From Kofleriaceae bacterium (GTDB taxonomy: Bacteria > Myxococcota_A > Polyangia > Haliangiales > Haliangiaceae), in contig JASNYD010000006.1 in NCBI GenBank assembly GCA_048500355.1, positions 544,211 to 608,210 on the forward strand: DNA of 64,000 bases, written 5' to 3'. Each line of letters opens with the position of its first letter. Positions within the stretch are counted from its first letter, which is position 1. This document shows, piece after piece, positions 4,944 through 62,369 of this stretch. A program made the position numbers and the translations under genes. Below the pieces are notes generated by a model. It was not told the origin of the DNA. It saw only the letters and a list, made by a program, of their open reading frames with translations, and made no database searches.

Positions 4944-6314
4944 ATGGCGGCGATGCGCCGAGCCGCCCTCTCCCTGCTCGTGCTCTGGCTCGGCGCCTGC
5001 GCCTTCGAGCCGCGCGGCGGCGATCCCGACGCCACCGCCACCGACGCCGCCACCGACGCGCCGGACGACGACGGCGACGCCGCCGTCCCCGACGCCGCCA
5101 CCGACGCCGCCGTCCCCGACGCCGCCGTCCCCGACGCCGCCGTCCCCGACGCCGCCGTCCCCGACGCCGCCACCGACGCCGCCGTCCCCGACGCCGCCAC
5201 CGACGCCGCCGTCGACGCCAGTCCCGACGCGCCGCCGCTGGTCGACATCGCCTACCTGCCGCCGGCGGCCGAGGTGCCCGGCACCGGCGACGTGACCATC
5301 AGCGGGCTGATCACGATCGACACCTCGCCCACCGGCTCGCGCCCGAACCTCGGCGCCGGCACGTCGTACTCGGTGGCGACCCCGACCGGGGGCGGCGCCG
5401 ACATCGTCGTCCTCCACGTCGACGACCTGACCATCACCGCCGCCGGCACGCTGCGCGTGGTCGGCGCCCGACCGTTCGCGATCGTCGCCGGTGGCGCGGT
5501 CGTGATCAGCGGCAGGCTCGACGCCAGCGCCACCGGCACCACCGTCGCTGGCCCCGGCGGCGGCGGCCCCAGCGCCGGCACCGGCGAGGGCGGCGACGGC
5601 AGCCACGCCGGCACGCGCACCGACAGCGGCGGCGGCGGCGCTGGCCACGGGACGAGCGGCGCGCGCGGCGGCAACGCCACCTGCAACCTCGGCTGCCTCC
5701 CGAACGTCGTGACCGCCGGCGGCGCCGGCGGCGTCGCGTACAACGCCGGGCTCACCCAGCTCGTCGGCGGCTCGGGCGGCGGCAACGCGGCGGCGGCCAG
5801 CGGCACCTGCCCCGGCCAGCCCGGCGGCGCCGGCGGCGGCGCCGTGCTGATCTACGCCGCGGGCTCGATCACCGTCGCCGGCGTCATCGCCGCGCACGGC
5901 GGCGGCGGCGGCCGCGGCGTCGCCTGCTCGGGCACGGTGTCGACCGCCGGGGCCGGCGGCGGCTCGGGCGGTCAGCTCGACCTGCAGTCGCCGTCGATCA
6001 CGGTCAGCGGTCAGATCGGCGCCAACGGCGGCGGCGGCGGCGGTGGCTCCGACGGCAGCGACGGCGACGGCCAGCCCGGCCAGGACGGGCGCGACGACGG
6101 CAACCAGGCCAGCGGCGGCGCCGGCAGCGGCAACGTGGGCGGCGACGGCGGCGCGGGCGGTGCCGGCGCCTCCGGTCCCGGCCAGGGCGAGGACATGGGC
6201 AACGATCAGAACGGCGGGGGCGGCGGCGGCGCGGTCGGACGGGTCACGATCCGCCACCGCGGCGCCCAGCCCACCGTCGCCTCGAGTCCGCCTCCCACCT
6301 ACATCCCCTACTGA
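4944..6314 (+). CDS. glycine-rich lipoprotein, paralog A of a tandem triplicated family (Cys-AFEPRG N-terminus, D/A pentapeptide-repeat linker, GGA(V/I/L) motifs)
   Basis: [26 protein letters not shown] lipobox. An in-frame 15-nt repeat encodes (AAVPD/AATD)n at 5085-5230. Conserved block [15 protein letters not shown] ... [15 protein letters not shown] ... [22 protein letters not shown] ... GRVTIRHRG. Confidence 0.7.
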
Positions 6315-6365
6315 CCCGGCCGCGAACGCTCGCCACGAGCGCCTCCCGGGGCGATACTCGGCCCG

Positions 6366-7784
6366 ATGTGGCCGTACCGCGTCGCCCCGGCGATCCTGGC
6401 CCTGGCGCTCCTGGCGCCCGCCTGCGCCTTCGAGCCCCGCGGCGAGGAGCTCGCGGCCGACGCCGCCCTGGCCGACGGCGCGGTCGACGCGCGCCCCGAC
6501 GACGGCGGAGGCGACGACGACGCGGCGGCCATCGACGCGAGCGTGATCGACGCCGGCCTCACCGACGCCCGCCCCGACGCCGCGATCGTCGACGCCGCGA
6601 TCACCGACGCCCGCCCCGACGCCGCGATCGTCGACGCCGGGGTCACCGACGCCCGGCCGCCCGACGCCGGCGTCACCGACGCCCGGCCGCCCGACGCCGG
6701 CGTCGACGCCGGCGCGGTCGACGACATCGTCCACGTCCGGGCGATCGACGAGCACCTCGGCACCGGCGACTGGACCCTGACCGCGAACGCGAGCGTGCGG
6801 ACGTTCGGCACCGGCGCTGGCTTCGACGTCCCGCTACCGGCCGGGGTGACCTTCGAGAACGCGCCCCAGGATCCGAGCGAGCCGACGCTCGCGATCCTCC
6901 GCGTCCGCCACCTCACGATCGCCAGCGGGGTCACCCTGCGCGTGGTCGGCGCCGCGCCGTTCGTCGTCATCGCCGAGAGCGTGACGCTCTCCGGCGTCAT
7001 CGACGCCGGCGCCCGCCTCGGCGTGGCCGGCGGCGGCGCCACGGCCGGGATCGGCGTCGGCGGCGACGGCGCGCACCGCGGCCTCTACTCCGACGGCGGC
7101 GGCGGCGGCGGCAGCTTCGCCACCAGCGGCGGCCGCGGCGGTAACGCCTTCTGCGACACCGGCTGCACCCCGAACACGACCGCGCCCGGCGGCGCCGGCG
7201 GCGCGCTCCACGGCGACGCCATGCTGACCACGCTCCAGGGCGGCTCGGCCGGCGGACGAGGAGCGGCCCCCGCCGGCTGCACGATGGGGCCCGTCGGCGC
7301 CGGCGGCGGCGCGGTCCAGCTCTACGCCCGCACGTCGATCGTCATCGGCGCGGGTGGCGGCGTCAACGCCGGCGGGGGTGGCGGCGCCCGGGGCGAGCAG
7401 TGCCTCGGCAACTGGGGCGCGGCCCACGGCGGCGGCGCCGGCGGCGCCATCTACCTGCAGTCGCCGAGCGTGGTCAGCGGCGGCGTCCTCGCCGCCAACG
7501 GCGGCGGCGGCGGCGGCAGCGCCGGGCAGGGCGGCCCGGGCCGGAGCGGCAGCGACGGCGCGCTCGGCACCACGCCCGCGCCCGGCGGCGCCGGCAACGG
7601 CAACCTGAGCGCGCGCGGCGGCGACGGCGCCGCGGGCACGACCGCCGCGGGCAACGGCGGCGACGTCGGCAACGCCGGCAACGGCGGCGGCGGCGGCGGC
7701 GGGGCCGGCCGCATCGTCATCCGCCACCGCGGCACGGTCATCGCCGGCACCACCAGCCCCCCCGCGGTGACGGCGGCCTACTGA
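6366..7784 (+). CDS. glycine-rich lipoprotein, paralog B
   Basis: [27 protein letters not shown]; linker (DARPDAAIVDA)n. Shares [57 protein letters not shown] and GRIVIRHRG with paralogs A and C. Confidence 0.7.
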   Translation: MWPYRVAPAILALALLAPACAFEPRGEELAADAALADGAVDARPDDGGGDDDAAAIDASVIDAGLTDARPDAAIVDAAITDARPDAAIVDAGVTDARPPDAGVTDARPPDAGVDAGAVDDIVHVRAIDEHLGTGDWTLTANASVRTFGTGAGFDVPLPAGVTFENAPQDPSEPTLAILRVRHLTIASGVTLRVVGAAPFVVIAESVTLSGVIDAGARLGVAGGGATAGIGVGGDGAHRGLYSDGGGGGGSFATSGGRGGNAFCDTGCTPNTTAPGGAGGALHGDAMLTTLQGGSAGGRGAAPAGCTMGPVGAGGGAVQLYARTSIVIGAGGGVNAGGGGGARGEQCLGNWGAAHGGGAGGAIYLQSPSVVSGGVLAANGGGGGGSAGQGGPGRSGSDGALGTTPAPGGAGNGNLSARGGDGAAGTTAAGNGGDVGNAGNGGGGGGGAGRIVIRHRGTVIAGTTSPPAVTAAY

Positions 7785-9004
7785 TGCGGCGGCGCGGCTC
7801 GTCCACGATCGTGGCGCCCGGCCTCGCGCTGGCGCTCACGCTCACCGGGGGGTGCGCCTTCGAGCCGCGGGGCGCGCTCGACGACGACGCGGCCGCGCCC
7901 GACGCGCCGGGGGACGACGTCGACGCCGCGACCACCGACGCGCTCGAACCCGACGCCGCGCCGCACCAGGTCGCCCACGTCGCCAGCGCCGACGCCACCC
8001 TGGGCAGCGAGGATCTGGTCTTCGACGCCGCGGCCACGATCGACACCGGCGCGCTCACGGTCACCGGGATCACGCTGCCGGTCGGGGTCGAGCTGGTCGC
8101 GGCCGCCCAGAGCCCGAGCGGCCCCGAGCTCGCCCTCCTGCGCGTGCGCGGCCTGACCCTCGCCGAGGGCGTGGTCGTCCGCGCGATCGGCTCGCGCCCC
8201 CTGGTGATCCTCGCCGAGACCGCGAGCATCGCCGGCACCCTCGACGCCGGCGCCCGCCGCGATCAACCCGGCGCCGGTGGCTCCGGACCGCGCGGTGGCA
8301 TCGGCCGCGGCGGCGACGGCGTGCGCGACGGCAGCTACGCCGACAGCGGCGGCGGCGGCGGCGGCTTCGGTCAGCCCGGCGCCAAGGGTGGCGACGCCAG
8401 CGGCGCCGCCGGCGGCGAGGGCGGCCTGGCCTTCGGCGACCCCAACCTCGACCTCCTGCTCGGCGGCGCCGGGGGCGGCGGCGCGTCGTCGAGCGGCTGC
8501 GACGCCACCACCGCCGGCGCCGGCGGCGGCGCGCTCCAGATCTACGCCCGCACGTCGATCGAGATCACCACCACCGGCGCGATCAACGCCGGCGGCGGCG
8601 GCGGCGGCGGCGGCCGGAGCTGCTCGTTGCAGTACCTGGCCGGGACCGGCGGCGGCTCCGGCGGCGCCATCTACCTGCAGTCGCCGGTCATCGCCAGCGC
8701 GGGCATCCTCGCCGCCAACGGCGGCGGCGGCGGCGGCGGCGCCAGCAACGACCACGGCGGCCCCGGCGGCGACGGCACCGCGACCACCGCCCGCGCCACC
8801 GGCGGCACCTCCGGCGGCGCCACCTACGGCGCGGTCGGCGGCCGGGGCGCCGCCCAGGTCGGCGACGCCACCGCCGGCGACAACGGGCCCAGCCTCGGCA
8901 ACGGCGGCGGCGGCGGGGGCGGCGGCGGCCGCATCGTCGTCAGCTACCGCGACACGCTCGAGGAGGGCACCGTCAGCCCGTCGGCCGTCAAGCGGCAGTT
9001 CTGA
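7784..9004 (+). CDS. glycine-rich lipoprotein, paralog C
   Basis: ATG 7784 overlaps the TGA stop of paralog B (TGATG). [30 protein letters not shown]; shares [59 protein letters not shown] and GRIVVSYR. Confidence 0.7.
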
Positions 9005-9053: not shown

Positions 9054-9486
9054 GAACCCGAGCCCGGAGCCGAACCCGAGCCCGAGCCCGAATCCGAATC
9101 CGAACCCGAGCCCGAATCCAGGCCCGAATCCGAATCCGAACCCGAGCCCGAATCCGAGCCCGAATCCGAACCCGAATCCGAGCCCGAACCCGGATCCGAA
9201 CCCGAGCCCGAATCCGAACCCGAGCCCGAGCCCGAATCCGAATCCGAACCCGGATCCGAACCCGAACCCGAACCCGAACCCGGATCCGAATCCGAACCCG
9301 AATCCGAATCCGAACCCGAGCCCGGAGCCGAACCCGAACCCGAATCCGAATCCGAACCCGAATCTGAGCCCGAGCCCGGAGCCGAACCCGAACCCGAATC
9401 CGAATCCGAACCCGAATCCGAACCCGAACCCGAGCCCGAACCCGAATCCGAACCCGAGTCCGAGTCCGAGCCCGAGCCCGAACCCG
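9054..9486. repeat. tandem hexanucleotide array (GARNCC)n, about 72 units (gaaccc/gagccc/gaatcc/ggatcc/ggagcc/gagtcc)
   Basis: Read directly: the array lies between convergent genes (paralog C stop 9004, HNH stop 9514). Every frame translates to low-complexity dipeptide runs (EP/SE/PN/GS/DS) with no credible start codon. Confidence 0.85.
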
Positions 9487-9513
9487 ATCGTCCGTCTCCC
9501 GGACGCCCCCAGC

Positions 9514-14690: not shown

Positions 14691-15575
14691 ATGATCCGCT
14701 TCGCATCCAAGCTCGGCCTGCTCGCCGCCACGCTGTTCGCCCTCGCGCCTGCCTCGGCCCGCGCCGAGGAGCCGGACGCGCTGCCCGGCTCCGAGGAGGG
14801 CGAGGAGCCGGCCGGGGCCGCCCCCGCGCCCGCGGCCGACGCCGCGTCCACGACCGCGGCCGTCGACGCCAGTGCCCCGACGCGCTGGCCGCGCGACGTC
14901 ATCATGCGGCCCCTGACCCTGCCGTCGGGCGTGGTCATGGTCGGGATGGATCCCGCCGCCAACAACGACTTCTCGGCGGTGTCGACGACGCTGGTCGCCG
15001 GCTACGGCATCTCCGACAAGCTCGAGGCCGTGCTGTTCTACGGCTACGGGCTCAAGGACTTCGAGGTCAAGGGTGACCTCAAGGCCGGCGTCGGCTACGC
15101 CGCCCTCCGCGGCGCCGCCGGCGGCAAGCTGGAGGTCGTGCCCCGCGCCGTGGTCGGCTACAGCCTCCTGGGCGAGGCCCTCACCCCGCTCGGCCTCGGC
15201 GCTCAGGTCCAGTACAACATCAGCGACAAGCTCGCCGTGATCACGCCCGGCGGTCAGCTCGCGGTGAGCCTGGCCGAGGACGCCACCATGGCCACGCCGA
15301 TCACCTTCGGCCTCCCGGTCGCGGTCGGCTTCCAGCCGACCCCCGAGCTCTACCTGCAGCTCGACACCAACCTGGCGACCTTCAGCATCGCCGACTCCGC
15401 CAACGCCTTCATCTTCGCCGATCGCACGCCCGCGTCGCTGCTGGCGGTCTACAACGCGATCCCCGCCCTCGACGTCGCCGCCGGCATCGGCCTCGACCTG
15501 ACGCCGGCCGCCGGCGGGGTCGCCGACACCCTGGCCTTCCTGCTCGGCGTCCGCTACTACGCCGGCTCGCTCTGA
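14691..15575 (+). CDS. secreted hypothetical protein (signal peptide; Gly/Ala-rich beta-type composition)
   Basis: ATG 14691 is preceded by ggagga. MIRFASKLGLLAATLFALAPASARA signal; unremarkable codon usage. Confidence 0.6.
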   Translation: MIRFASKLGLLAATLFALAPASARAEEPDALPGSEEGEEPAGAAPAPAADAASTTAAVDASAPTRWPRDVIMRPLTLPSGVVMVGMDPAANNDFSAVSTTLVAGYGISDKLEAVLFYGYGLKDFEVKGDLKAGVGYAALRGAAGGKLEVVPRAVVGYSLLGEALTPLGLGAQVQYNISDKLAVITPGGQLAVSLAEDATMATPITFGLPVAVGFQPTPELYLQLDTNLATFSIADSANAFIFADRTPASLLAVYNAIPALDVAAGIGLDLTPAAGGVADTLAFLLGVRYYAGSL

Positions 15576-15585
15576 CGCGTGGTTC

Positions 15586-16640
15586 GCCCGACCGCGGTCG
15601 GAGCTCGCGGGAACCGAACGGCGAGCCCCATCGCTCCGGTCGCCCTGAGCCCATCGCTCCGGTCGCCCTGAGCCCATCGCTCCGGTCGCCCTGAGCCCAT
15701 CGCTCCGGTCGCCCTGAGCCCATCGCTCCGGTCGCCCTGAGCCCATCGCTCCGGTCGCCCTGAGCCCATCGCTCCGGTCGCCCTGAGCCCATCGCTCCGG
15801 TCGCCCTGAGCCCATCGCTCCGGTCGCCCTGAGCCGCCCGAGCGCCAGCGAGGGCGTGTCGAAGGGCGACAAGCCGCGGCCGTCGCGCGAACGATGTCGG
15901 GCGCGTGCCGGAGGCCGTTCGTCGGGAGCCCTTCACCGACCGCGGTCGGAGACTGCGCGAACGAACGGCGAGCCCCTGCTCTCCGGTCGCCCTGAGCCCA
16001 TCGCTCCGGTCGCCCTGAGCCCATCGCTCCGGTCGCCCTGAGCCCATCGCTCCGGTCGCCCTGAGCCCATCGCTCCGGTCGCCCTGAGCCCATCGCTCCG
16101 GTCGCCCTGAGCCGCCCGAGCGCCAGCGAGGGCGTGTCGAAGGGCGACAAGCCGCGGCCGTCGCGCGAACGATGTCGGGCGCGTGCCCGAGGCCGTTCGT
16201 CGGGAGCCCTTCACCGACCGCGGTCGGAGACTGCGCGAACGAACGGCGAGCCCCTGCTCTCCGGTCGCCCTGAGCCCATCGCTCCGGTCGCCCTGAGCCC
16301 ATCGCTCCGGTCGCCCTGAGCCCATCGCTCCGGTCGCCCTGAGCCGCCCGAGCGCCAGCGAGGGCGTGTCGAAGGGCGACAAGCCGCGGCCGTCGCGCGA
16401 ACGATGTCGGGCGCGTGCCGGAGGCCGTTCGTCGAGAGCCCTTCACCGACCGCGGTCGGAGACTGCGCGAACGAACGGCGAGCCCCTGCTCTCCGGTCGC
16501 CCTGAGCCCATCTCTCCGGTCGCCCTGAGCCCATCGCTCCGGTCGCCCTGAGCCCATCGCTCCGGTCGCCCTGAGCCGCCCGAGCGCCAGCGAGGGCGTG
16601 TCGAAGGGCGACAAGCCGCGGCCGTCGCGCGAGCGATGAC
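15586..16640 (+). repeat. composite intergenic repeat: 4 macro-units, each an about 170-nt module followed by 4-10 copies of a 23-nt tandem repeat (cccatcgctccggtcgccctgag); the module contains the perfect palindrome ccgaccgcggtcgg
   Basis: Read directly: 23-nt periodicity (for example 15671/15694). Module copies begin near 15836, 16115, 16347 and 16577. The near-identical 61-aa ORFs at 15856, 16134 and 16366 are repeat artefacts. Confidence 0.85.
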
Positions 16641-16654
16641 GGCCGACGAGCCGG

Positions 16655-18265
<1,611 letters not shown>

Positions 18266-19242: not shown

Positions 19243-19350
19243 CGCCGTTCGAGGGCGGAGCCGGGCTCGACACGCGAGGCCCGAGGGCCCGAGACCCTGC
19301 GACGTCGCCCCTTCGGGGCTTCGCTCGGGGTGTGCGGGGGGAGGAGGTCG

Positions 19351-19816
19351 AGCCCGGGGCCGGATCCGGACCCGAGTCCGGATCCGAACCCGAACCCGAG
19401 TCCGGATCCGAACCCGGACCCGAGTCCGGATCCGAACCCGAACCCGAGTCCGGATCCGAGCCCGAGTCCGGATCCGAACCCGAACCCGAACCCGAACCCG
19501 AGTCCGGATCCGAGCCCGAGTCCGAGTCCGGATCCGAGCCCGAGCCCGAGTCCGGATCCGAGCCCGAGTCCGAGTCCGGATCCGAGCCCGAACCCGAGTC
19601 CGGATCCGAACCCGAGCCCGAGTCCGGATCCGAGCCCGAGCCCGAGTCCGGATCCGAACCCGAGTCCGGATCCGAACCCGAGTCCGGATCCGAACCCGAG
19701 CCCGAGTCCGAGCCCGAACCCGAGTCCGGATCCGAACCCGAACCCGAGTCCGGATCCGAGCCCGAGTCCGGATCCGAACCCGAGTCCGGATCCGAACCCG
19801 AGCCCGAGTCCGAGCC
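19351..19816. repeat. tandem hexanucleotide array (GARNCC)n with a gagtccggatcc 12-mer superstructure, about 77 units
   Basis: Same repeat family and the same + strand orientation as 9054-9486. Lies between the FAD-oxidoreductase stop (19820) and the EEP start (19242), both on the minus strand. Confidence 0.85.
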
Positions 19817-19819
19817 CGC

Positions 19820-21436: not shown

Positions 21437-21649
21437 CCTGGGGACCGGGTCGCTGGCATGGTTCCGCGCCGCAACGTCGCCGATAGTGCCACGCGTCCTG
21501 CCGACGGAGGGCCCGACGGGGCTCCCGGCGCGCTCGGCGGAGGGAGCGAGCCCGGCGCGGGCGACGGGCCAGCCGCGGGCGGGGACGCCGACGCTCCTCA
21601 CGAACGGCGTCGGCAAGAGCCCGTCATCACTCGCGCGGGGCCGCGGCCT

Positions 21650-22128
21650 GTCGGCCTTCGACACGCCCTCGCTCGCGCTCGGGCGGCTCAGGCCGACCGG
21701 AGAGATGGGCTCGGAGCGACTCGCTCGCGCTCGGGCGGCTCGGGCCGACCGGAGAATGGGCTCAGGGCGACTCGCTCGCGCTCGGGCGGCTCAGGCCGAC
21801 CGGAGAGATGGGCTCAGAGCGACTCGCTCGCGCTCGGGCGGCTCGGGCCGACCGGCGTGATGGGCTCAGGGCGACTCGCTCGCGCTCGGGCGGCGCGGGC
21901 CGACCGGCGTGATGGGCTCGGGCCGACCGGCGTGATGGGCTCAGGCCGACTCGCTCGCGCTCGGGCGGCGCGGGCCGACCGGCGTGATGGGCTCGGGCCG
22001 ACCGGAGAGACGGGGCTCGCCGTTCGTTTCCCGCGAGCTCCGACCGCGGTCGGTGAAGGGCTCAGGCCGACCGGAGAGACTGGCTCGCCGTTCGTTTCTC
22101 GCGATCGCCGGCCGCGGTCGGTGAAGGG
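21650..22128 (-). repeat. second, inverted copy of the composite repeat element (reverse complement of the 15586-16640 modules plus 23-nt repeat variants)
   Basis: gacacgccctcgctcgcgctcgggcggctc is the reverse complement of gagccgcccgagcgccagcgagggcgtgtc. gccgttcgtttcccgcgagctccgaccgcggtcggtgaagggctc is the reverse complement of the 15590-15630 module. ctcaggccgaccggagagatggg is a variant of the reverse-complemented 23-mer. Confidence 0.8.
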
Positions 22129-22129
22129 T

Positions 22130-22942
22130 TCAGGGCAAGCGCAGCTCGCCGCGCGCGACCAGCACGCCGTGGCCACCGAGGCGCACGCGGTCGCCGGCCA
22201 CGGTGACCGCCAGCTCGCCGCCGCGGCGGCTGACCTGGCGCGCCGCCAGCGTGGTCCGCCCCAGCCGCGCCGCCCAGTACGGCCCGAGGGTGCAGTGGGC
22301 GGAGCCGGTGACCGGATCCTCGTCGACGCCGTGCTGGGGGGTGAAGTAGCGCGACACCAGGTCGACGTCGCCGTCGCGATCGCCGGCGCCGGGCGCGGTG
22401 ACGATCAGGCCCTCGGTCGGCAGCGCGCCGACCCGCCGCAGCTCGGGGGCGAGGGCGCGGACGGCGGCGGCGTCGGCGACCACCGCCATCAGGTTGCGCG
22501 ACCGCCACAGCTCGACCACCGGCACGCCGATCGCCTCGGCCACCGCCGCCACCAGCGCCGGGTCGGCGACCGGCTCGGCGACCCGCGCCGGCAGATCGAG
22601 CACCAGCCGCTCGCCGTCGCGCTCGACCTCGAGCGGGCCGCTGCGGGTCGCGAAGCGGACGCGCGTGGTCCCGGGCTCGACCTCGTCCATCCACACCAGG
22701 GCGCTGGCCAGGGTGGCGTGACCGCACAGGTCGACCTCGGTGGTGGGGGTGAGCCAGCGCAGGCGGAGGCCGTCGGCCTCGCGCATGACGAACGCGGTCT
22801 CCGACAGCGCCAGCTCGCCGGCGATCTGCTGCAGGAGCTCGTCGGGCAACCAGCCCGCGAGCGGGATGACCGCCGCCGGGTTGCCGGCGAACGGGCGGGT
22901 GGTGAAGGCGTCGACGACGTAGTACGGCAGCGTGCGGGGCAT
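22130..22942 (-). CDS. PhzF family phenazine-biosynthesis-like isomerase
   Basis: MPRTLPYYVVDAFTTRPFAGNPAAV N-terminus; DLCGHATLASA and TGSAHCTLGPYW catalytic regions are typical of the PhzF/DAP-epimerase fold. 270 aa. Confidence 0.85.
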   Translation of the reverse strand: MPRTLPYYVVDAFTTRPFAGNPAAVIPLAGWLPDELLQQIAGELALSETAFVMREADGLRLRWLTPTTEVDLCGHATLASALVWMDEVEPGTTRVRFATRSGPLEVERDGERLVLDLPARVAEPVADPALVAAVAEAIGVPVVELWRSRNLMAVVADAAAVRALAPELRRVGALPTEGLIVTAPGAGDRDGDVDLVSRYFTPQHGVDEDPVTGSAHCTLGPYWAARLGRTTLAARQVSRRGGELAVTVAGDRVRLGGHGVLVARGELRLP

Positions 22943-45827: not shown

Positions 45828-47474
<1,647 letters not shown>

Positions 47475-47690
47475 GCGGCCGACGCGCGGGCGGCCGCGCG
47501 CGGTGGCGGCCGCCCTGGCGACGCGCGCGGTGGCGGCGGTGGGGCGAGCGGCGGGTGCGCGGCGGCGGGGTGGCGGCCGGGAGAGCGACGGGTGAACGGC
47601 GGCGGGGTGGCCGGGGGCCGCGCGGACGGCGCGCGGCGCGGTGGCGGCCGGGCGAATGCGGCGCCCGCGGTCCGCGTTATCCTCGGACCG

Positions 47691-48467
47691 ATGCCCAGCC
47701 CGAAGCTCAGCACCCTGCCCAGCCCGGCGCCCGGCGCCGGCGCCCGCGTCGCCATCGTCCTCGGCCTGGCCGCCTTCGGCCTCGGCTGCGGCGGCGCCTC
47801 CGGCCGCGGCGTCGAGCACCGCGGCGGCGCGGCGGCCCGCGGCGACACCCCGCCCTGCCCCACCGCCGACGCCTTGACCGCGCTGGCGCGGGGCGCCTGG
47901 GAGCTCGCCGACGGCACCGTCCACGTCGAGTGCGCCGCGCTGTGGGCCGAGGGCCAGGCCTGGTGGTACCTCGACGGCGCCGTCGAGCGCGAGGATCCGG
48001 ACGAGGGCTGGAGCGTGGACATGGGGCGCGCGCTGGTCGCCGCCGCCTCGGGCGCGACCGCGTGGCGCGAGGTCGACACCGGCATGCCACCGGCGACGCT
48101 CGACCGGTCGATCTCGGGCGACTTCACCGCCGTCGATCTCGACGGCGACGGCAGCGACGAGCTCCTGACCGTGAGCGGCTACAGCCACGGCGGTCACGAG
48201 GAGACCGCGCTCCACGTCTACCGCGTGGCCAGCGGCGCGGTGGTGGCCGCCGGCCGCCTGCCGCTGTCCGCCGACAACGCCGCCGCGGTCGAGGACGAGG
48301 CCGACATGATCCTGTGCCGGGGCGAGCACCGCCTGGTGGCAGGCCCGGGCGGCGCGACCCGGATCGAGATCACCGCCACCTGGATCGGCGCGGTCGAGCC
48401 CGACGCCTGCCCGCCCGAGGGGCGCCGCGTCTACCGCTGGACCGGCGAGGCGCTGGTGGCGGAGTGA
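47691..48467 (+). CDS. hypothetical lipoprotein
   Basis: MPSPKLSTLPSPAPGAGARVAIVLGLAAFGLGC-GG lipobox; the body is protein-like (DLDGDGSDELLTVSGYSHGGHEETALHVYRV). Flanked on both sides by G-rich direct repeats. Confidence 0.5.
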   Translation: MPSPKLSTLPSPAPGAGARVAIVLGLAAFGLGCGGASGRGVEHRGGAAARGDTPPCPTADALTALARGAWELADGTVHVECAALWAEGQAWWYLDGAVEREDPDEGWSVDMGRALVAAASGATAWREVDTGMPPATLDRSISGDFTAVDLDGDGSDELLTVSGYSHGGHEETALHVYRVASGAVVAAGRLPLSADNAAAVEDEADMILCRGEHRLVAGPGGATRIEITATWIGAVEPDACPPEGRRVYRWTGEALVAE

Positions 48468-48640
48468 CGGCGGTGGGCCGCGGGCGCGCGGCGCGCGTGG
48501 CGGCGTGACGGCGGTGGGCCGGCGGGCTCGCGGCGTGCGGCGTGACGGCGGTGGCGGGGCCCGCCAACCGTGGCCGGATTCCGGACGGGTGGCCGGAATC
48601 CGGCCGGGCGGTGGCCGGATCCCGGCCACGGCGCGCGGCG
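48468..48640. repeat. REP-like region: 3 direct copies of gtgacggcggtgggccg (about 38-nt spacing) followed by three GC hairpins (ccggattccgg / ccggaatccgg / ggccggatcccggcc)
   Basis: Read directly; sits immediately upstream of the RAYT-like transposase gene. Confidence 0.7.
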
Positions 48641-48689: not shown

Positions 48690-49589
48690 ATGTCGCTCCC
48701 GCGCCCCATCTACCCCGGCAGCTTCTACCTGCTGAGCCGCCGGTGCGTGCAGCGGATGTTCCTGCTGCGGCCGGACGCGGTGACGAACAACAACCTCGCG
48801 TACTGCCTGTTCGAGGCGGCGCAGCGCTTCGGCATCGTCGTGATCTTGCCGCTGGCGATGTCCAACCACCAGCACACGGTCCTGTACGACCCGTGGGGCA
48901 ACATCGTCGCGTTCATGGAGCGCTTCCACGGCATGTTCGCCCGGGTACAGAACGCGCGGCTCGGCCGCTGGGAGAACCTGTGGGCCGCGGAGCCGCCGTC
49001 GCTGGTGCGGCTCGAGGGTCGCGACGACGTGCTCGACAAGCTGGTCTACGTCGCGACCAACCCGGTTGCCGCCGGCCTCGTCGAGCGGTCGCACCAGTGG
49101 CCGGGCGTCAACGGCCTGCCGGCGCTGCTCGCAGGGCGGGCGATGGTGGCGCGCCGGCCCGAGCACTTCTTCGGGCCCGACAGCGCGCTGCCCGAGGTGG
49201 TGTCGCTCGAGCCGACCATCCCGCCCGAGCTCGGCGACGCCGCCGCCGTCAAGCGCGAGCTACGCGAGCGCGTCCGCGCCGCCGAGGACCGCCTCGCCCG
49301 CGAGCGCGCCGCCGCCGGCGTCCCGGTGATGGGCGTCCGCGCGGTGCTGGCCCAGGCCTTCACCGACTCGCCGCGGACCCACGAGCCGCGCCGCGTCCTC
49401 AGCCCGCGCGTCGCCGCCCGCAACGTCTGGCTGCGCATCGAGGCCCTGCGCCGCAACCGCGCCTTCCTCGACGCCTACCGCGCCGCCCGCGCCCTCTGGC
49501 TCGCCGGCCTCGACGTCGTCTTCCCCGCCGGCACCTACTGGCTCCACCGCTTCGCCGGCGTCCCCGTCGCGCCCCTCGTCAAATCCTGA
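48690..49589 (+). mobile_element. REP-associated tyrosine transposase (RAYT) / IS200-like Y1 transposase gene
   Basis: HUH-type motif region LPLAMSNHQHTVL and the catalytic-Tyr motif LVYVATNPVAAGLV (Y-x-x-x-N-P-V as in RAYT/IS200 TnpA). No IS inverted repeats; flanked by hairpin repeats instead. Confidence 0.6.
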
Positions 49590-49900
49590 CGCCCCGCCCC
49601 CGGCCCTCGCGCGTGCCCACCGGCACGCGCCGTCGCGGCGTGGCCGCGCGCGGCTCGGCGAGCGGTCCGCACGGCTGCCGTGCGGCCGGTCGGAGCGGAC
49701 GCCGCGCCTCCCTTCCGCCGTAACCCCGGTACGAGCTCGGACCGTAACCCCGGTACGAGCTCCGAGTACGAGCTCCGCGCCGGTATGCCGTCGCGGCGTG
49801 GCCGCGCGCGGCCGGGCGACCGGTCCACGCGGTCGCCGCGCGGTCGGTTGGAGCGGCCGCCGTAACCCCGGTGACCTGCTGGTCGCTCCAACCAGCGCAC
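49590..49900. repeat. downstream repeat block: two about 100-nt direct repeats (gccgtcgcggcgtggccgcgcgcggc...ccgtaaccccggt), internal 22-nt tandem ccgtaaccccggtacgagctcg, and GC hairpins (gcgtgcc-cacc-ggcacgc; ccgcacggc-t-gccgtgcgg)
   Basis: Read directly. Confidence 0.7.
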
Positions 49901-51871: not shown

Positions 51872-53506
51872 ATGACGTCCCGACGCCTCGACGGTCCGGC
51901 CGCCGTCGCCCTCGTCCTCGCCGCGCTCGCCGCCGCCACCGCGGCTCCCGCCCGCGCCGAGGAGGTGCAGCTCTCCGACGGCTCGCGATGGGAGATCCGC
52001 GACCTCGTCCTCACCCGGATCGCGCCATCCCCCGCGATCCAGATCCGCACCGCGGTCTTCAACGTCGGCATCGGCTGTGCCGAAGGGCTGGATCGAAGGT
52101 ACCGCGTTGGACACCGCGCGTACGTCCCGCCGTCTGCCTACCCCGTCGCGGTCGAGGAACCCGACGGCGGACGGGTCCGCGGCGTGGTGTGCGCCGACCT
52201 CGATGGCGCCGCCGTCGTCACCACGATCACCTGGACCGGGGCGCCGACGCCATCCGATCACGCGTCGGTGAGGGGAGTGCTGGAGGCGCTGTTCACCGAC
52301 CTGAAGGGGTTCGCGTGGCCGGCAAGCTCGCTCTCGCTGTTTCAGCCCTCGATCCTGGCGGTGCCGCTGGACGCCCGCACCGGGACCTGGAACTTCGTCT
52401 CCGGCAAGGTCGATGCCATGTCGACCCTCCTGTTCATGCTGTGGCCGCAGGGGCCGCCCGCAGCCATCAGCATGAACCGCCCCCGCGTACGGCAGCGCTG
52501 CGACGAGGTCGGGCTGCGACAGCCTCGGCCGTCGTGGGCGCCAGCGAGCTTCTACCCGCTCGGCGCCACACGCGGCGACTCGGCGCTGGCCTGCCTCGAC
52601 CCCGCCGATGGTCACGCACTCATCGTCCAGGTCCGGCTCGCCGACCCGGCCGACGGATCGCGGGTGCGCGCCCTGCTCGAGGCGATCGCCGCCGCCGCCG
52701 GCGCCGCGCGCCCGCCCGCCACGGCGCCACCGCCGCCGTCGCCGGCGCCCCCTGCCCCCCCGGCGGTGAGGCCATCGCCGGCGGCGACCCCGACGCCGCG
52801 GCCCGCGACGTCCGCCCCGCTGGCCGCGGCCGCGACGACGGCCGCGCCGCCCTACGACGGGTCGACCGCCCCGTACCTCCGCGCCAGCCGCCGCCACGAC
52901 GACGAGGCTGACGACCTGGCGCCCTACGCCGGTCGGCGCGACCACGCGCTCGGGCTCGGGCGCCGGCACTGGCGCGTCGAGCTCCACCAGCTCGCGCCGG
53001 GGACGGCGGTCGCTGCCACCGAGACCGCGCTCGGCGCCGGCGCCGGCGTCGGCGCGCTGCGTCTGTGGGGGCGTCCGTGGAACGCGCTGGCCGGCGGCCT
53101 CGAGTACGACGCCAGCGCCGCCGTCGAGCGCTCGTCGAGCGTCACCTTCGACACCCACGCCGGCGCGATGCTCGGCCTGCGGCCGGGCCCGACGCTGGTG
53201 ATCCTGGGCGGCTTCGGGGTCGGCCTCGACGGGCTCGGGCTCGGCGCCGCCGACGACCGGCCGGCGCTCGACGCCGGCCTCTACGGCTACGCCGGCATCC
53301 GCGCCCGGCTCGCGCTCGGTCGCCGCCTCGGCCTCGACGCCTGGGCCCGCCGGCTCGATCGCGCCGGCGACGTCGGCGAGACCCGGTACGGCGCCGAGCT
53401 GACGATCCACCGCCGCCGCGGCGCGTCGGTGGTGGTGGGCGCGCAGCGCACGACCTACGACGACCTCGCCGATCGGGTCGGGGTCTCCCTGGGCGTCCGC
53501 CGCTGA
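51872..53506 (+). CDS. secreted hypothetical protein (signal peptide; Pro/Ala-rich central linker)
   Basis: [29 protein letters not shown] signal. N-terminal half protein-like; the C-terminal half is Gly/Ala/Leu-rich and possibly a beta-barrel. Confidence 0.55.
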
Positions 53507-53571
53507 GCGACGACCGACCGCCGGTCGCGACCCGGTCGCGCCACCACCGCCGGCGACGTACCATCGCGCCG

Positions 53572-54141
53572 ATGCCGCTGTCCCGCGACGAGGCCTGGGC
53601 CCTGTTCACCACCTGGACCACCGGCGACGCGCTGCGCCGCCACGGCCGCGCCGTCGAGCTGGTGATGCGCGCCGCCGCGCCGCGCTACGGCGGCGCCGAC
53701 GCCGACGTCGAGCAGTGGGGCCTCGCCGGCCTCCTGCACGACGCCGACTACGAGGCCTGGCCCGACGAGCACCCCCACCGCGTCGTCGGCTGGCTGCGCG
53801 AGCGCGGCGAGGCCGCCCTGGCCCACGCCATCAGCGCCCACTACACGCGGTGGGGCGTGCCGTACGAGAGCGCGCTCGACCGCGCGCTGCTCGCCTGTGA
53901 CGAGCCCACCGGCTTCGTCATGGCCTGCTGCCTGGTCCGCCCCGACGGCATCGCCACCCTCGAGGTCGCCAGCGTCAGGAAGCGCCTCAAGGACAAGCGC
54001 TTCGCCGCCACCGTCGACCGCGGCGAGGTCACCGCGGGCGCGGAGCTGCTCGGCGTCTCGCTCGACGCGCACCTCGCGTTCATCATCGGCGCGCTCCGCG
54101 CCCACGCCACCGAGCTCGGCCTCACCGGCCGCGCGACCTGA
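53572..54141 (+). CDS. HD-domain metal-dependent phosphohydrolase
   Basis: H...HD motif (RHGRAVE ... [11 protein letters not shown]) and downstream conserved His/Asp residues. 189 aa. Confidence 0.7.
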
Positions 54142-54230
54142 CGGCTCGTCGCCCGTCGCCACCGGCGACCGGACAGGGTGGGCTCGAATCCGGGCGCGGG
54201 TTCGGATCCGGGCCGCGGGGCCACCACCGA

Positions 54231-55490
<1,260 letters not shown>

Positions 55491-55523
55491 GGGGCTACCG
55501 GGACGCCGCGGACGAGGCCAGGA

Positions 55524-56159
<636 letters not shown>

Positions 56160-56313
56160 GGCCTGACCCGACTGTACGAGCCCCCGGGGGATGGCGCAAC
56201 GCGATCGCCCGGCAAGGGCGGGGCACCTGCCCGAAAGACCGGGCCGACTCCCGGACCGCGCGCCGACCCGATCACGGCCCGATCACGGCCCGATCGCCGG
56301 CCCGATCGCCGGT

Positions 56314-57702
56314 TCAGTGGTTGCAGTCGGGGCCGTGGACGTGCCCCTCGTCGCCGTGGTCGGGCGCGGTGGCGATCGGCCCGCCGGTGCCGAGACCGGC
56401 CTCGGCCGGCTCGCTGAGCGTGTCGACCTCGGTCACGCTGGCCCGCTCGACCAGGAGGTCGAGGACCTTGTCCTGGCGGAGCGACCAGCGCGCCGAGTCG
56501 AGGCGGCCGTCGCGATCCCACTCGGCGCGCAGGCGCGCCGGCGGGACGTTGCGGGCCTTCGCCGCCTGGGTGACGTGGACCATGATCTCGTCGTCGCTGA
56601 CCGCGATCTGCTCGCCGTCGGCGATGGCCTCGAGCAGGAGCTGGCCGCGGACCTCGTCGGCGCCGGCCGGCTTCATCTTCTCGCGCAGCTCGGCGGTGAG
56701 CCCGGTGCCTTCGCGATCCGGGGGCATGCCGATCATCTGGCGCAGGCGGTTGTACTGCATCTCGACCGCGCGATCGACGAGCGACGACGCCACCGGGATC
56801 TGGAACTTCTTGACCAGCGCGCGCAGCGCGGCCTGCCGGGCCTCGCTCTTGATGACCGCCGCCTCGCGATCCTCGAGCTCCTTGCGCACGGCGGCGCGCA
56901 GGCCGTCGAAGGTGTCGGCCTTGCCGGTGTCCTTGGCGAAGTCGTCGTCGAGCCCCGGCACGTCCTTGGCCCGGGCCTCGACCACCGACATCGTGAGGTG
57001 GGCGTGACGGCCGCGCAGGCTCTCGTCGGCGTGATCGGCGGGGATGTCGACCTCGAACACCTGGTCCTTGGTGTCGAGGGGCACGCCGGTGAGGGCGGCG
57101 CGCAGGCCGGGCACCGGCTCGCGCTCGGGGTCGTCGAGGTCGACGCCGAAGCGGGGCTGATCGATCGGGTGCTCGCCGATCGAGCCGACGACGTGGACGA
57201 TCACGACGTCGCCGGGGGCGGTCTCGGTGCGGCCCTCGATCGGCACCAGCTCGGTGTGCTCCTTGCGCAGGGCCTCGATCGCCTTGTCGACCTCGGCGTC
57301 CTCGACCTTCAGGCGGCGGCGCTCGATGGCGAGCCCCTGCCAGCCGTCGACCACGACCTCGCCCTTGATCTCGACGATGGCGGCGAACGCGAAGGGCTCG
57401 CCCTTCTTGATCTGCCCGCCCTCCTCGAGCCGGGGCTCGGCCACCGCGCCGAGCTGGTGCTGCTGGTTGGCGGTGAAGAACGACTCGCGCACGAGCTGGT
57501 ACGCGACCTCGGCGTGGACGCGCGGCGCGTAGATCTGCTCGAGCACCGAGCGGGGCGCCTTGCCCTTGCGGAAGCCCTTGAGGGCGACGCCCTTGCCGAG
57601 CTCGCGGTACGCGACGCCGAGGCGGTCGGCCACGGTCGCCCACGGGATCTCGACGATGAGCTTCTTCTCGACGGGAGAGACGTCTTCGATGCGCAGCTGC
57701 AT
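56314..57702 (-). CDS. tig: trigger factor (with unusual His/Cys-rich C-terminal tail ...[15 protein letters not shown])
   Basis: Ribosome-binding GFRKGKAP motif, FKBP-like middle domain and C-terminal chaperone domain. ATG 57702 is chosen to match the conserved trigger-factor N-terminus [15 protein letters not shown] (upstream ATG 57765 is an alternative). Gene order tig-clpP-clpX. Confidence 0.9.
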
Positions 57703-61206: not shown

Positions 61207-62315
61207 GCGAGCTCGATCGCCGCGACGCCCTCCGCCTGCTCGCCGTCGGCGGCGCCTCGGCCGCGGTCGCCTGCGCGTCGGCGCGGCGCGGCGCCGGCCC
61301 CGAGCCGGTGGTCGCCACCCGGCCGCTGGGCGCGCCGCCGTGGCCGACGCTCGATCCGTTCCTGTTCTGCGTCCACCACGACGATCACTACCCGGCGGGC
61401 GACGAGCGCCTGGGCCCGGCGGCGTCCCTGGCCGGGCGCCGCCTCGGCAACGACTTCGCGGGCAAGGACGGCTGGCGCATGTACCACGGCCGCACCGTGC
61501 CCGGCTTCCCGCAGCACCCGCACCGCGGCTTCGAGACCGTGACCGTGGTGCGGCGCGGCCTGCTCGACCACAGCGACTCGCTGGGCGCCGCCGCCCGCTA
61601 CGGCGGCGGCGACGTGCAGTGGCTCACCGCCGGCGCCGGCATCCTGCACGCCGAGATGTTCCCGCTCCTCGAGCGCGCGGCGCCCAACCCGGTCGAGCTG
61701 TTCCAGATCTGGCTCAACCTGCCGCGGGCCGACAAGTTCGCGCCGCCGCACTTCTCGATGCTGTGGCAGGACGTCGTCCCTCGCCAGCGCATCGCCGACG
61801 GCGACGGCCGCGCCGTCGACGTCACCGTGGTCGCCGGCCGCCTGGGCGCGGCGGTCGCGCCGCCGCCGCCGCCGTCGTCGTGGGCGGCCCGCCCCGACAG
61901 CGACGTGGCGATCTGGACCCTGCGTCTGGCGCCCGGCGCGCGCTTCACCCTGCCCGCGGCCGCACCCGACGCCAGCCGCGCCCTCTACGTCTTCCGCGGC
62001 GACCGCCTGCGCGTCGGCGCGACGGTGGTCGCCGCCGGCACGATGGTCGAGCTCCACGCCGGGCTCGAGGCGCCGCTGGTCGCCGGCGGCGCCGAGGTCG
62101 AGGCCCTCCTGCTGCAGGGCCGTTCGATCGGCGAGCCGGTGGTGGCCCACGGCCCGTTCGTGATGAACAGCCGCGAGGAGATCCAGGACGCGATCGCCGA
62201 CTACCAGCGCACCCGCTTCGGCGGCTGGCCGTGGCCCGACGACGGCCACGTCCACGACCGCGACGAGGGCCGCTTCGCCCGCCACGCCGACGGCCGCGTC
62301 GAGCGCCCGGCCTGA
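61203..62315 (+). CDS. Tat-secreted pirin-like cupin protein
   Basis: ATG 61203 overlaps the stop of the upstream gene (ATGA). Twin-arginine signal MSELDRRDALRLLAVGGASAAVACASA. Pirin motifs HPHRGFETVTVVRRG ... VQWLTAGAGILHAEM. Confidence 0.8.
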   Translation: MSELDRRDALRLLAVGGASAAVACASARRGAGPEPVVATRPLGAPPWPTLDPFLFCVHHDDHYPAGDERLGPAASLAGRRLGNDFAGKDGWRMYHGRTVPGFPQHPHRGFETVTVVRRGLLDHSDSLGAAARYGGGDVQWLTAGAGILHAEMFPLLERAAPNPVELFQIWLNLPRADKFAPPHFSMLWQDVVPRQRIADGDGRAVDVTVVAGRLGAAVAPPPPPSSWAARPDSDVAIWTLRLAPGARFTLPAAAPDASRALYVFRGDRLRVGATVVAAGTMVELHAGLEAPLVAGGAEVEALLLQGRSIGEPVVAHGPFVMNSREEIQDAIADYQRTRFGGWPWPDDGHVHDRDEGRFARHADGRVERPA

Positions 62316-62369
62316 GCCCCTCCCGCGCCCCGAGCGCATCCCGCCGGCGCCGCGCGGCGAGACCCGCGG

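Follow-up and report, generated by a model that had tools for sequence, protein, structure and literature searches.

What is the array of short repeats, about 1 kb long, that separates two genes in the genome of a Kofleriaceae bacterium, and is it a local duplication or one copy of something that has spread? We addressed this question in a 64,000-nt stretch of contig JASNYD010000006.1 (GenBank assembly GCA_048500355.1, positions 544,211 to 608,210), referred to here as the window, which has a G+C content of 75%. The array (locus 1) occupies window positions 15577 to 16640 on the plus strand and consists of ~1.06 kb of repeats assembled from a few modules, which we call P, Q, R, H, and T1-T2. 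It lies between the stop codon of a gene for a 294-amino-acid (aa) secreted protein (14691 to 15575, plus strand) and that of a convergent gene for a Ser/Thr kinase (16655 to 18250, minus strand). A second locus built from the same sequences (locus 2) lies on the minus strand. With a probability of roughly 0.7, we consider both loci to be copies of a lineage-specific, noncoding composite interspersed repeat of the kind that includes bacterial interspersed mosaic elements (BIMEs), BOX elements, and neisserial intergenic mosaic elements (NIMEs), behaving as a selfish or near-neutral, nonautonomous element at the 3' ends of genes.

All modules start with CC and end with a GAG-type motif. They read as follows.

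P: CCCTTCA-CCGACCGCGGTCGG-AG, then a 7-nt variable stretch
Q: GAAACGAACGGCGAG
R: the 23-mer CCCATCGCTCCGGTCGCCCTGAG, whose 3' part is E, TCGSCCTGAG
H: CCGCCCGAGCGCSAGCGAG
T1: GGCGTGTCGAAGGSCGACAAGCCGCGGCC, then a linker of ~27 nt
T2: GCCGTTCGTYAGGAGC

In locus 1 these modules are arranged in the order P'-Q-R9 / H-T1-T2-P-Q-R6 / H-T1-T2-P-Q-R4 / H-T1-T2-P-Q-R4 / H-T1, and the parts are distributed as follows.

15567 to 15576, plus strand: E-like sequence TCGCTCTGAC, with which the upstream gene ends; the TGA at 15573 to 15575 is the stop codon of the secreted-protein gene
15577 to 15626, plus strand: degenerate first P-Q unit, with palindrome CCGACCGCGGTCGG at 15588 to 15601 and Q at 15611 to 15625; this left junction is also kept in sister strain L147
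15627 to 15833, plus strand: run of 9 perfect R copies, which showed no structure on folding
15834 to 16111, plus strand: macro-unit 1, with H 15834 to 15852, T1 15853 to 15881, T2 15914 to 15929, P palindrome 15936 to 15949, Q 15958 to 15972, a variant R 15974 to 15996, and five R copies
16112 to 16343, plus strand: macro-unit 2, with H 16112 to 16130, T1 16131 to 16159, T2 16192 to 16207, palindrome 16214 to 16227, Q 16236 to 16250, a variant R, and three R copies
16344 to 16575, plus strand: macro-unit 3, with H 16344 to 16362, T1 16363 to 16391, T2 16424 to 16439, palindrome 16446 to 16459, Q 16468 to 16482, two variant R copies, and two R copies
16576 to 16640, plus strand: right end of locus 1, with a terminal H (16576 to 16594), T1 (16595 to 16623), and a truncated linker; the kinase gene stop codon is at 16655 to 16657, and the right flank GGCCGACGAGCCGGTCACC is common to L147

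The 23-mer R was found in 23 plus-strand copies (exact or with up to 3 mismatches) from 15627 to 16575, and dinucleotide shuffles yielded 0. The copies form runs of 9, 6 (one variant plus five), 4 (one plus three), and 4 (two plus two). TRF reported periods of 23, 232, and 278 nt at 98 to 100% identity; the macro-periods of 278 and 232 nt (98 to 99% identity) correspond to a 163-nt module plus five or three extra 23-mers. The perfect 14-nt palindrome CCGACCGCGGTCGG occurs four times. These repeat counts and the TRF result bear out the initial annotation, which had placed an array of 23-mers with this palindrome at 15586 to 16640. G+C content by codon phase was flat at ~0.75 in all three phases from 15600 to 16560, and the flanking genes had third-position G+C (GC3) values of 0.95 to 0.99. 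Locus 1 is therefore noncoding, and the 61-aa open reading frames (ORFs) within it are artifacts, as had been proposed. Nor is it an array of clustered regularly interspaced short palindromic repeats (CRISPR), again in agreement with the earlier view: the 23-nt units abut head to tail without unique spacers, the longer periods consist of repeats in their turn, and the arrays have a mosaic makeup.

Locus 2 has the following position and setting.

21593 to 22129, minus strand: locus 2, beginning directly past the phzF stop codon (22130 to 22132), with a gene for a FAD-dependent protein on its other side

It comprises two P-Q-R units (palindromes at 22108 to 22121 and 22040 to 22053), followed by 23-mer variants that alternate with a 29-mer, H+E, at a period of ~52 nt (six H copies between 21968 and 21668), and it ends in a single terminal H-T1-T2 (T1 at 21639 to 21667, the linker, and T2 at 21593 to 21608). 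A second locus carrying the same sequences in reverse complement had been reported, and both its reality and its strand stood. Its boundary, put at 21650, did not: the locus reaches ~21593 because homology runs on through T1-linker-T2, and it contains only one full "module" in an otherwise different architecture. Module searches found no further copies within the 64-kb window. At 62308 to 62361, CGGCCTGAGCCCC coincides with a stop codon and was weighed as a possible remnant copy, but the likeness was too weak for this to be accepted. Separately, the pirin-like gene at this convergent intergenic region ends ...GGCCTGAGCCCC, the motif that the element abuts elsewhere, which may be a vacant target or a chance occurrence.

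The sequences are not confined to these two loci. A dispersal scan, consisting of one exact-pattern search (GAGCCGCCCGAGCGCNAGCGAG) of 185,579 genomes, one per species, matched at least 120 stretches. Among the matches listed, 77 stretches were contigs of one metagenome-assembled genome (MAG), "uncultured delta proteobacterium PRO4" (here, PRO4), a fragmented short-read assembly. One PRO4 contig (L023) is 97.8 to 99.2% identical to window positions 51926 to 56917 and, judged by sequence, PRO4 is of the same species as the window organism or of a sister species. The minimum counts in the PRO4 stretches are 135 for P-Q units and 89 for H units; with the window, this amounts to ~139 P-Q units in 560 kb, all of them outside high-GC3 ORFs. 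The 43 listed matches outside PRO4 (Streptomyces and others) contained only the 22-mer, without a P-Q unit, and were set aside as chance or coding matches. A scan of Joint Genome Institute (JGI) metagenomes gave 4 matches, all in JAANMX/JAANMY assemblies, of which JAANMY holds the window organism, and a scan of viral contigs for the family gave 0 matches. By its sequence distribution, the family is restricted to a narrow lineage. The initial annotation had called the element dispersed rather than locally duplicated and had suggested looking for copies beyond the two loci; with at least 77 stretches scattered through PRO4, the family is dispersed and is not unique to the window. Composite interspersed repeats, as defined for BIME, NIME, and BOX elements (PMC3049150), are built of few subsequences in regular patterns, are intergenic, and measure less than a few hundred base pairs per basic unit; the present family has this makeup, with one grammar recurring at at least 77 stretches. 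Six spurious "proteins" in NCBI assemblies translate these repeats (with motifs such as AFDTPSLALGRLRPTGE and APTAVGG) and lie on other contigs, of 665, 220, and 808 kb.

Independent assemblies also reproduced the window loci. Locus 2 is identical in one of them (L001), and the first 40 to 170 nt of locus 1 are reproduced identically in five others, whose contigs then end inside the repeat. In three cases (L004, L008, and L009) the start of locus 1 is present with at least 4 to 5 copies of the 23-mer. Because short-read contigs break inside the repeat, the count of 9 copies in the first R run is without independent confirmation.

When the PRO4 loci were tokenized, they followed one grammar, (P-Q-R)n-H-T1-(linker)-T2, with one to six P-Q-R units and, in some cases, repeated H-T blocks. 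The 170-nt "module" of the initial annotation is thus not the natural unit; across loci, the order is (P-Q-R)n and then H-T1-T2. Modules within one PRO4 locus all share one orientation, and array units are direct rather than inverted doublets. Amplification occurs at periods of 7, 23, 52, 68, and 232 to 278 nt. The P-Q-R units are diverse (127 of 135 are distinct in sequence), and the P core is >90% conserved at each position. Units of one array share private 7-nt and R variants, and median unit identity is 94% within arrays versus 84% between loci, which indicates that arrays grow in place. Another scale of slippage is seen inside T1, where the heptamer AGCCGAC is present in 2 to 6 tandem copies in four PRO4 loci (L109, L034, L095, and L025).

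At ~10 PRO4 loci (L013, L042, L056, L077, L088, L097, L103, L112, L113, and L124), the R-H-T1 core is reversed relative to the flanking T2-linker and P-Q modules. This inverted-core isoform carries private substitutions (CGCAAGCGAG in H and CTTTCCGG in R). Since the same diagnostic substitutions accompany it at ~10 loci, the variant appears to have spread after arising, which suggests a single inversion event followed by dispersal. A further hairpin module, CGAAGCCCCGAAGGGGCG..., lies at window positions 19287 to 19326 after a hexamer array, and the same module (GAAGCCCCGAAGGGGCGGAGTCGAAGGGG) was present in 12 PRO4 loci, typically directly past T2; the mosaic vocabulary is therefore larger than the initial annotation had found.

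We then considered where copies lie relative to genes, with flanking genes called by GC3. At the left (P) end, the neighboring gene was co-oriented in 38 of 47 cases (binomial p = 2.5e-5), so that its 3' end faces the element; at the right end, the neighbor was convergent in 39 of 63 cases. For 25 copies both flanks were known, and these comprised 10 convergent, 9 tandem co-oriented, 4 tandem antisense, and 2 divergent settings. Copies avoid promoter regions. The left junction itself is tied to the end of the upstream gene. CCTGAG is found at essentially all left junctions, and in the junction sequence CCTGAG/CCCTTCA-CCGACCGCGGTCGG (slash, start of P) the TGA is the upstream gene's stop codon at at least 10 PRO4 loci and at window locus 2. 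At those stop-codon junctions, unique coding DNA lies 5' of an 8- to 9-nt CGSCCTGAG-like stretch, and many copies begin no more than 8 nt past a stop codon. Other left junctions carry a longer R-like remnant, in many cases with GGGTTC/GGATTC/GGGCTC hexamer arrays ahead of it. In some cases a GAAGCCCCGAAGGGGCG hairpin module and more hexamers come after the right end.

Hexamer arrays also occur on their own in the window. Two of them (GGGTTC/GGATTC/GGGCTC/GGACTC/GGATCC, 430 to 470 nt) lie at 9054 to 9487 and 19349 to 19818 in minus-strand sense and begin within ~30 nt of the stop codons of the genes for an HNH endonuclease and the FAD-dependent protein. In sister strain L147, the second of these arrays has a length of just ~150 nt. 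Many PRO4 copies of the element have such arrays next to them, on either side, and the hexamers yield spurious microRNA-hairpin matches in Rfam.

Comparison with a closely related strain revealed both presence/absence and restructuring. Sister strain L147 is represented by a 22.9-kb contig, reached through a PhzF protein 99% identical to that of the window; it is collinear with the window from the protease gene to feoB, at 96.5 to 98.5% nucleotide identity. Locus 2 is empty in L147 and filled in the window, as follows (slashes mark the boundaries).

L147: ...TTGCCCTGAG / CGCGCC...(34 to 47 nt)... / GTCGCTCGCCCCCGCC
Window: ...TTGCCCTGAA / CCCTTCACCGACC...(518 nt)...GAGGAGC / GTCGGCGTCCCCGCC

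The locus thus measures 518 nt in the window versus 34 nt in L147. A phzF orthologue from another genus (73% identical) also ends TTGCCCTGAG. Because both the empty allele and this orthologue end phzF in this way, CCTGAG is native to the target and the element starts directly after it. No target-site duplication was found on comparing the filled locus 2 (window) with the empty one (L137/L147), CCTGAG being present on the left only. The "empty" allele contains a 20-nt stretch resembling P, but the resemblance is too weak for it to count as a remnant.

Both strains carry an occupied locus 1 between identical flanks, but it measures 1080 nt in the window versus 452 nt in L147, where the order is P'-Q-R / H-T1~Q-R / P-Q-R / P-Q-R / H-T1-T2 / H-T1'. 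The E type at this locus is GGCC in L147 and GCCC in the window. At a third position, 52 nt of unique sequence in the window (54160 to 54212) have a PRO4 counterpart of ~780 nt of repeats. The region concerned (window 54141 to 54231; L023, 2741 to 3523) lies between two convergent genes, an HD-domain gene and clpX, and the PRO4 insert there consists of a partial reversed H-T element, a GGGCTCGGGTTCGGCTCC array, ~400 nt of unassigned sequence, and a CCGCCGCCGCGAGCCG array.

The initial annotation had also proposed that each unit folds into extended hairpins, and we scored fold stability as a z-score against shuffles. The 48-nt E-H-T1 hairpin was clearly more stable than expected (z = -2.9; 0 to 4 of 200 shuffles were as good), and the T2-P-Q hairpin was marginal (z = -1.9). 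The P-Q-R unit (z = -0.8), whole units (z = -0.4 and -0.8), and the 23-mer array (z = 0.0) did not stand out. The folding claim therefore holds clearly for E-H-T1 and marginally for T2-P-Q, but the 23-mer array and the whole unit fold no better than shuffles. Fold and energy of the E-H-T1 hairpin do not differ between its GGCC/GGCC and GCCC/GGGC forms (GTCGGCCT/AGGCCGAC and GTCGCCCT/AGGGCGAC). Its pairing holds in 92 to 100% of cells in a comparison of 64 distinct E-preceded copies, and compensatory double changes were seen at pairs 11-50, 22-37, and 21-38, representing few independent events. A candidate helix that would pair the 7-nt variable stretch following P with the first part of R seemed to covary in a few subfamilies, failed when all 96 units were used, and was rejected.

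Taken together, these observations lead us to favor a composite interspersed repeat that behaves as a selfish or near-neutral, nonautonomous element and colonizes intergenic DNA at gene 3' ends. The data above show its dispersal, grammar, noncoding nature, and position bias, the junction at stop codons, the presence/absence and rebuilding of copies between strains, and the E-H-T1 hairpin; its insertion, the enzyme that moves it, its transcription, and its effect on expression we infer as follows. The basic P-Q-R-H-T unit would disperse to CGSCCTGAG-like sites, with new copies landing immediately 3' of the native motif; such sites often coincide with TGA stop codons in this genome, where insertion would be harmless. 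Arrays would then expand, contract, and homogenize through replication slippage, unequal recombination, or gene conversion between modules, processes that could have produced, in locus 1, the 9/6/4/4 R runs and the three macro-units that are nearly identical. Because it is located just past co-oriented genes, the element is probably transcribed as a 3' untranslated region, in which the hairpins E-H-T1 and T2-P-Q might serve as 3' barriers or attenuators. Its position and what is known of similar repeats make it plausible that it influences where or how upstream transcripts end at their 3' side. In its polar ends, its lack of inverted termini and of target duplications, and its fixed 5' motif, the element recalls HUH-type single-strand transposition.

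Several observations weigh against this reading. The count of at least 77 PRO4 stretches rests on a fragmented short-read MAG. The large proportion of distinct P-Q-R units implies that the copies are old and diverse, so any present-day mobility is putative. Right ends are heterogeneous, falling past T2, past T1, or within T1. The filled and empty alleles of locus 2 differ by a replacement (518 nt for 34 to 47 nt) rather than a clean insertion, and on the sequences, recombination or gene conversion at microhomology would fit locus 2 as well as transposition does. Finally, no mover enzyme was found: an all-versus-all BLASTP comparison of 607 predicted ORFs near copies (560 kb) revealed no recurrent mobile-element gene, and the ORFs that did recur belonged to paralogue families such as ABC ATPases and kinases.

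The favored reading has a more specific and rather unlikely extension, namely, that this is a new sequence-targeted nonautonomous element inserting exactly 3' of CGSCCTGA(G), a motif with which many genes end in this 75% G+C genome, and mobilized by a hairpin-recognizing, HUH-like enzyme or by template switching, that could modulate translation termination or mRNA decay for dozens of genes. Stop-codon-proximal repetitive extragenic palindromic (REP) sequences of Escherichia coli offer an analogy for the tuning of translation termination or mRNA decay. If this were true, targeted insertion would place a strong palindrome ~8 nt past a stop codon, and the hypervariable arrays would be strain-specific expression switches.

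Among the alternatives, the one that survives best, though we regard it as doubtful, holds that the element is the REP or REPIN partner of a RAYT-like transposase encoded in the window; P or E-H-T1 would be the REP that is bound and cut in single-stranded DNA, thereby spreading the family. The gene in question is as follows.

48690 to 49589, plus strand: RAYT-like Y1/HUH transposase-family gene, 299 aa, with motifs NHQHTV (HUH) and YVATNPV (Tyr), 26 kb from the element

The presence of a RAYT in the window, noted initially, appears to be right. Besides the HUH and Tyr motifs, the protein matches NCBIfam REP_Tyr_transpos over the whole profile (E = 2.4e-7; 30.8 bits, below the cutoff of 80), and it has 1223 homologues, many of which JGI calls "REP element-mobilizing transposase RayT"; among the named organisms, Kofleriaceae MAGs are the closest. 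The protein is roughly twice as long as E. coli RayT and carries a conserved extension at its C terminus; the large family to which it belongs shows ~60% identity across Myxococcota-like MAGs. Pfam gave no Y1_Tnp match in the window, this gene included, a PDB sequence search with the protein gave no meaningful match, and tblastn with E. coli RayT and the window protein found no further copies in the 0.97 Mb of DNA examined. The element also looks like a REP in being extragenic, high copy, and palindrome bearing (the 14-nt P palindrome and the 48-nt E-H-T1 hairpin); the absence of terminal inverted repeats and target duplications, together with a fixed short motif 5' of the hairpin, would fit HUH-type single-strand transposition, and tandemly repeated REPINs are known (PMC3337134).

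The link between this gene and the element, implied by the initial annotation, did not hold up. A RAYT typically has its own REPINs on its flanks and is specific to a single type of REP (PMC3337134). Here, none of the P, Q, H, and T modules flanks the gene, and P and H are absent within 26 kb of it. Its upstream flank instead carries three GGTGGCCGGAATCCGGCC-type palindromes (GGTGGCCGGA(A/T)TCCGGCC) with AA/TT centers that resemble REP doublets, and its downstream flank carries CCGTAACCCCGGTAC repeats and two copies of a 76-nt direct repeat. These flank repeats are located at 48569 to 48627, 49629 to 49862, and 49718 to 49765; CCGTAACCCCGGTACGAGCTC is present there in two tandem copies, and its CCGTAACCCCGGT core occurs once more at ~49860. 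The GGTGGCCGGAATCCGGCC-type repeats recur in the intergenic DNA of two PRO4 loci (L068 and L076). A Kofleriaceae homologue of the RAYT (locus L135) shows the classic arrangement, with inverted CACCGGGGTTG / CAACCCCGGT repeats on its flanks and no P or H beside it. Because RAYTs are specific to the REP type that flanks them, the P/H family is not the evident partner of this gene; the flank repeats appear to be better candidates for its cognate REPs. Moreover, the array units are direct rather than inverted doublets, and an inverted arrangement is seen only in the T2/Q complementarity around P (z = -1.9) and in the inverted-core isoform.

A host-serving role, in which selection would retain the hairpin modules in this high-G+C organism, is a further reading that we consider unlikely, whether as a 3'-end element (a terminator, an mRNA-stabilizing structure, or a stop-proximal regulator) or as one small structured RNA per unit. 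The strong bias to the 3' ends of co-oriented genes, the starts within 8 nt of a stop codon in many cases, the conservation of the P core over 127 distinct units, and the compensatory changes in E-H-T1 would all be expected of such an element, and other composite repeats attenuate transcription or alter transcript stability (PMC3049150). However, no T-tract terminator-like sites were found in 15577 to 16640 or 21593 to 22129. Rfam gave no match at gathering score over the whole window and none on either locus up to E = 1. Whole units and the 23-mer array fold no better than shuffles (z = -0.4 to -0.8 and 0, respectively), and the helix proposed between the variable stretch and R lacks consistent covariation. 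Locus 2 is absent from a 97- to 98%-identical strain, and the number and order of modules at locus 1 vary freely. In addition, among the 13 copies situated between tandem genes, 4 run antisense to both neighbors, and the family is lineage narrow.

The proposal that the element is a MITE (miniature inverted-repeat transposable element), i.e., a deletion derivative of an insertion sequence (IS) moved by the DDE transposase of that IS, is highly improbable. The family is MITE-like in being short, noncoding, multicopy, and intergenic and in varying in presence between strains, but its ends are unrelated rather than inverted repeats (left, CCCTTCACCGACC...; right, ...GTTCGTCAGGAGC, ...GCCGTTCGTYAGGAGC, or ...GCCGCGGCC), locus 2 shows no target-site duplication, the G+C content is 75% rather than AT rich, and the 560 kb contained no IS-like ORF with matching ends; the MITE option raised initially is therefore unsupported, terminal inverted repeats and target-site duplication being absent. 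An assembly artifact or a purely local tandem duplication has a negligible chance of being the explanation and, as regards the existence of the element, is refuted, since although near-perfect repeats are prone to assembly error and the copy number of the 23-mer run is without an independent check, L001 has an identical locus 2, the beginning of locus 1 recurs in five other assemblies, and the modules are present at at least 77 other stretches and in the sister strain.

Two other repeat-rich regions of the window were seen. G-rich 37- to 41-nt tandem repeats (GTGACGGCGGTGGGCCG, GGTGGCGGCCG...) lie at 47474 to 47652 and 48445 to 48557, on both sides of an unannotated gene (47592 to 48467), and 17-mers related to them occur in a few PRO4 loci. 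At 4944 to 9004 (plus strand), three consecutive ORFs of 406 to 472 aa without a Pfam match are rich in in-frame 12- to 42-nt repeats of the CCGACGCCGCCG type; their products are probably low-complexity secreted or repeat proteins.

The family appears to be undescribed, although its kind, composite interspersed repeats, is already known. A literature search on the motifs and on Anaeromyxobacter and myxobacterial REPs found nothing relevant; with no Rfam family and no paper on the family found, the initial statement that it matches no described element stands. What emerges is a composite repeat family with a worked-out grammar in an uncultured, very high-G+C, Myxococcota-like lineage. It explains short-read assembly breaks at dozens of sites as well as the spurious repeat "proteins" of gene callers, and its arrays are hypervariable markers that separate strains 97 to 99% identical. 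The coincidence of the left end with the upstream stop codon, with one native CCTGAG empty site, offers a lead on target choice and on effects on termination. The family is not a new category of biology, and the stop-codon-coupled junction and the strain plasticity are what is most worth following.

Four known groups invite comparison. Nonautonomous IS200/IS605-type elements (palindrome-associated transposable elements [PATEs]) are polar, with unlike ends, subterminal hairpins, and neither terminal inverted repeats nor target duplication, and they insert 3' of a short specific sequence. The present element would resemble them, with CCTGAG at its left junction and a similar YAGGAG at its right end, but no TnpA partner with matching ends was found for it, and its only filled/empty pair is a replacement. 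The IS608 and ISDra2 targets are 4 to 5 nt long, and the left motif here is longer, often 8 to 9 nt (CGSCCTGAG). The likeness to BIMEs and tandem REPIN arrays of Enterobacteria and Pseudomonas lies in a mosaic of a palindromic unit and fixed linker motifs, an extragenic position at gene 3' ends, and tandem arrangement (PMC3049150, PMC3337134), as well as in the presence of a RAYT-like gene in the genome. In those systems, however, the palindromic units alternate in orientation and flank the RAYT, whereas here they are direct and the RAYT flanks differ; the 48-nt E-H-T1 hairpin is also longer than a REP.

Like the NIMEs and Correia elements of Neisseria, the family is a composite intergenic repeat drawn from a small vocabulary of subrepeats. 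NIMEs and Correia elements are transcribed with neighboring genes, and Correia elements have 26-bp inverted termini (PMC3049150). The present element lacks such termini and has no sequence relation to them. Correia elements also make a TA target duplication, and none was seen at locus 2. In architecture, and in architecture alone, the family comes closest to BOX of Streptococcus pneumoniae, boxA-(boxB)n-boxC. BOX termini are inverted repeats resembling an IS (ISSpn2), whereas the ends of the present element are unlike each other, several of its modules are amplified, and its left junction is tied to the CCTGAG stop-codon context; the BOX host is a Firmicute of ~40% G+C, and the present host is Myxococcota-like, at 75% G+C. 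BOX is regarded as parasitic, with side effects on cotranscribed genes (PMC3049150). Like BOX, the family combines distinct terminal modules with a variable number of tandem internal modules, and it is intergenic, structure rich, lineage narrow, and variable in copy number between strains.

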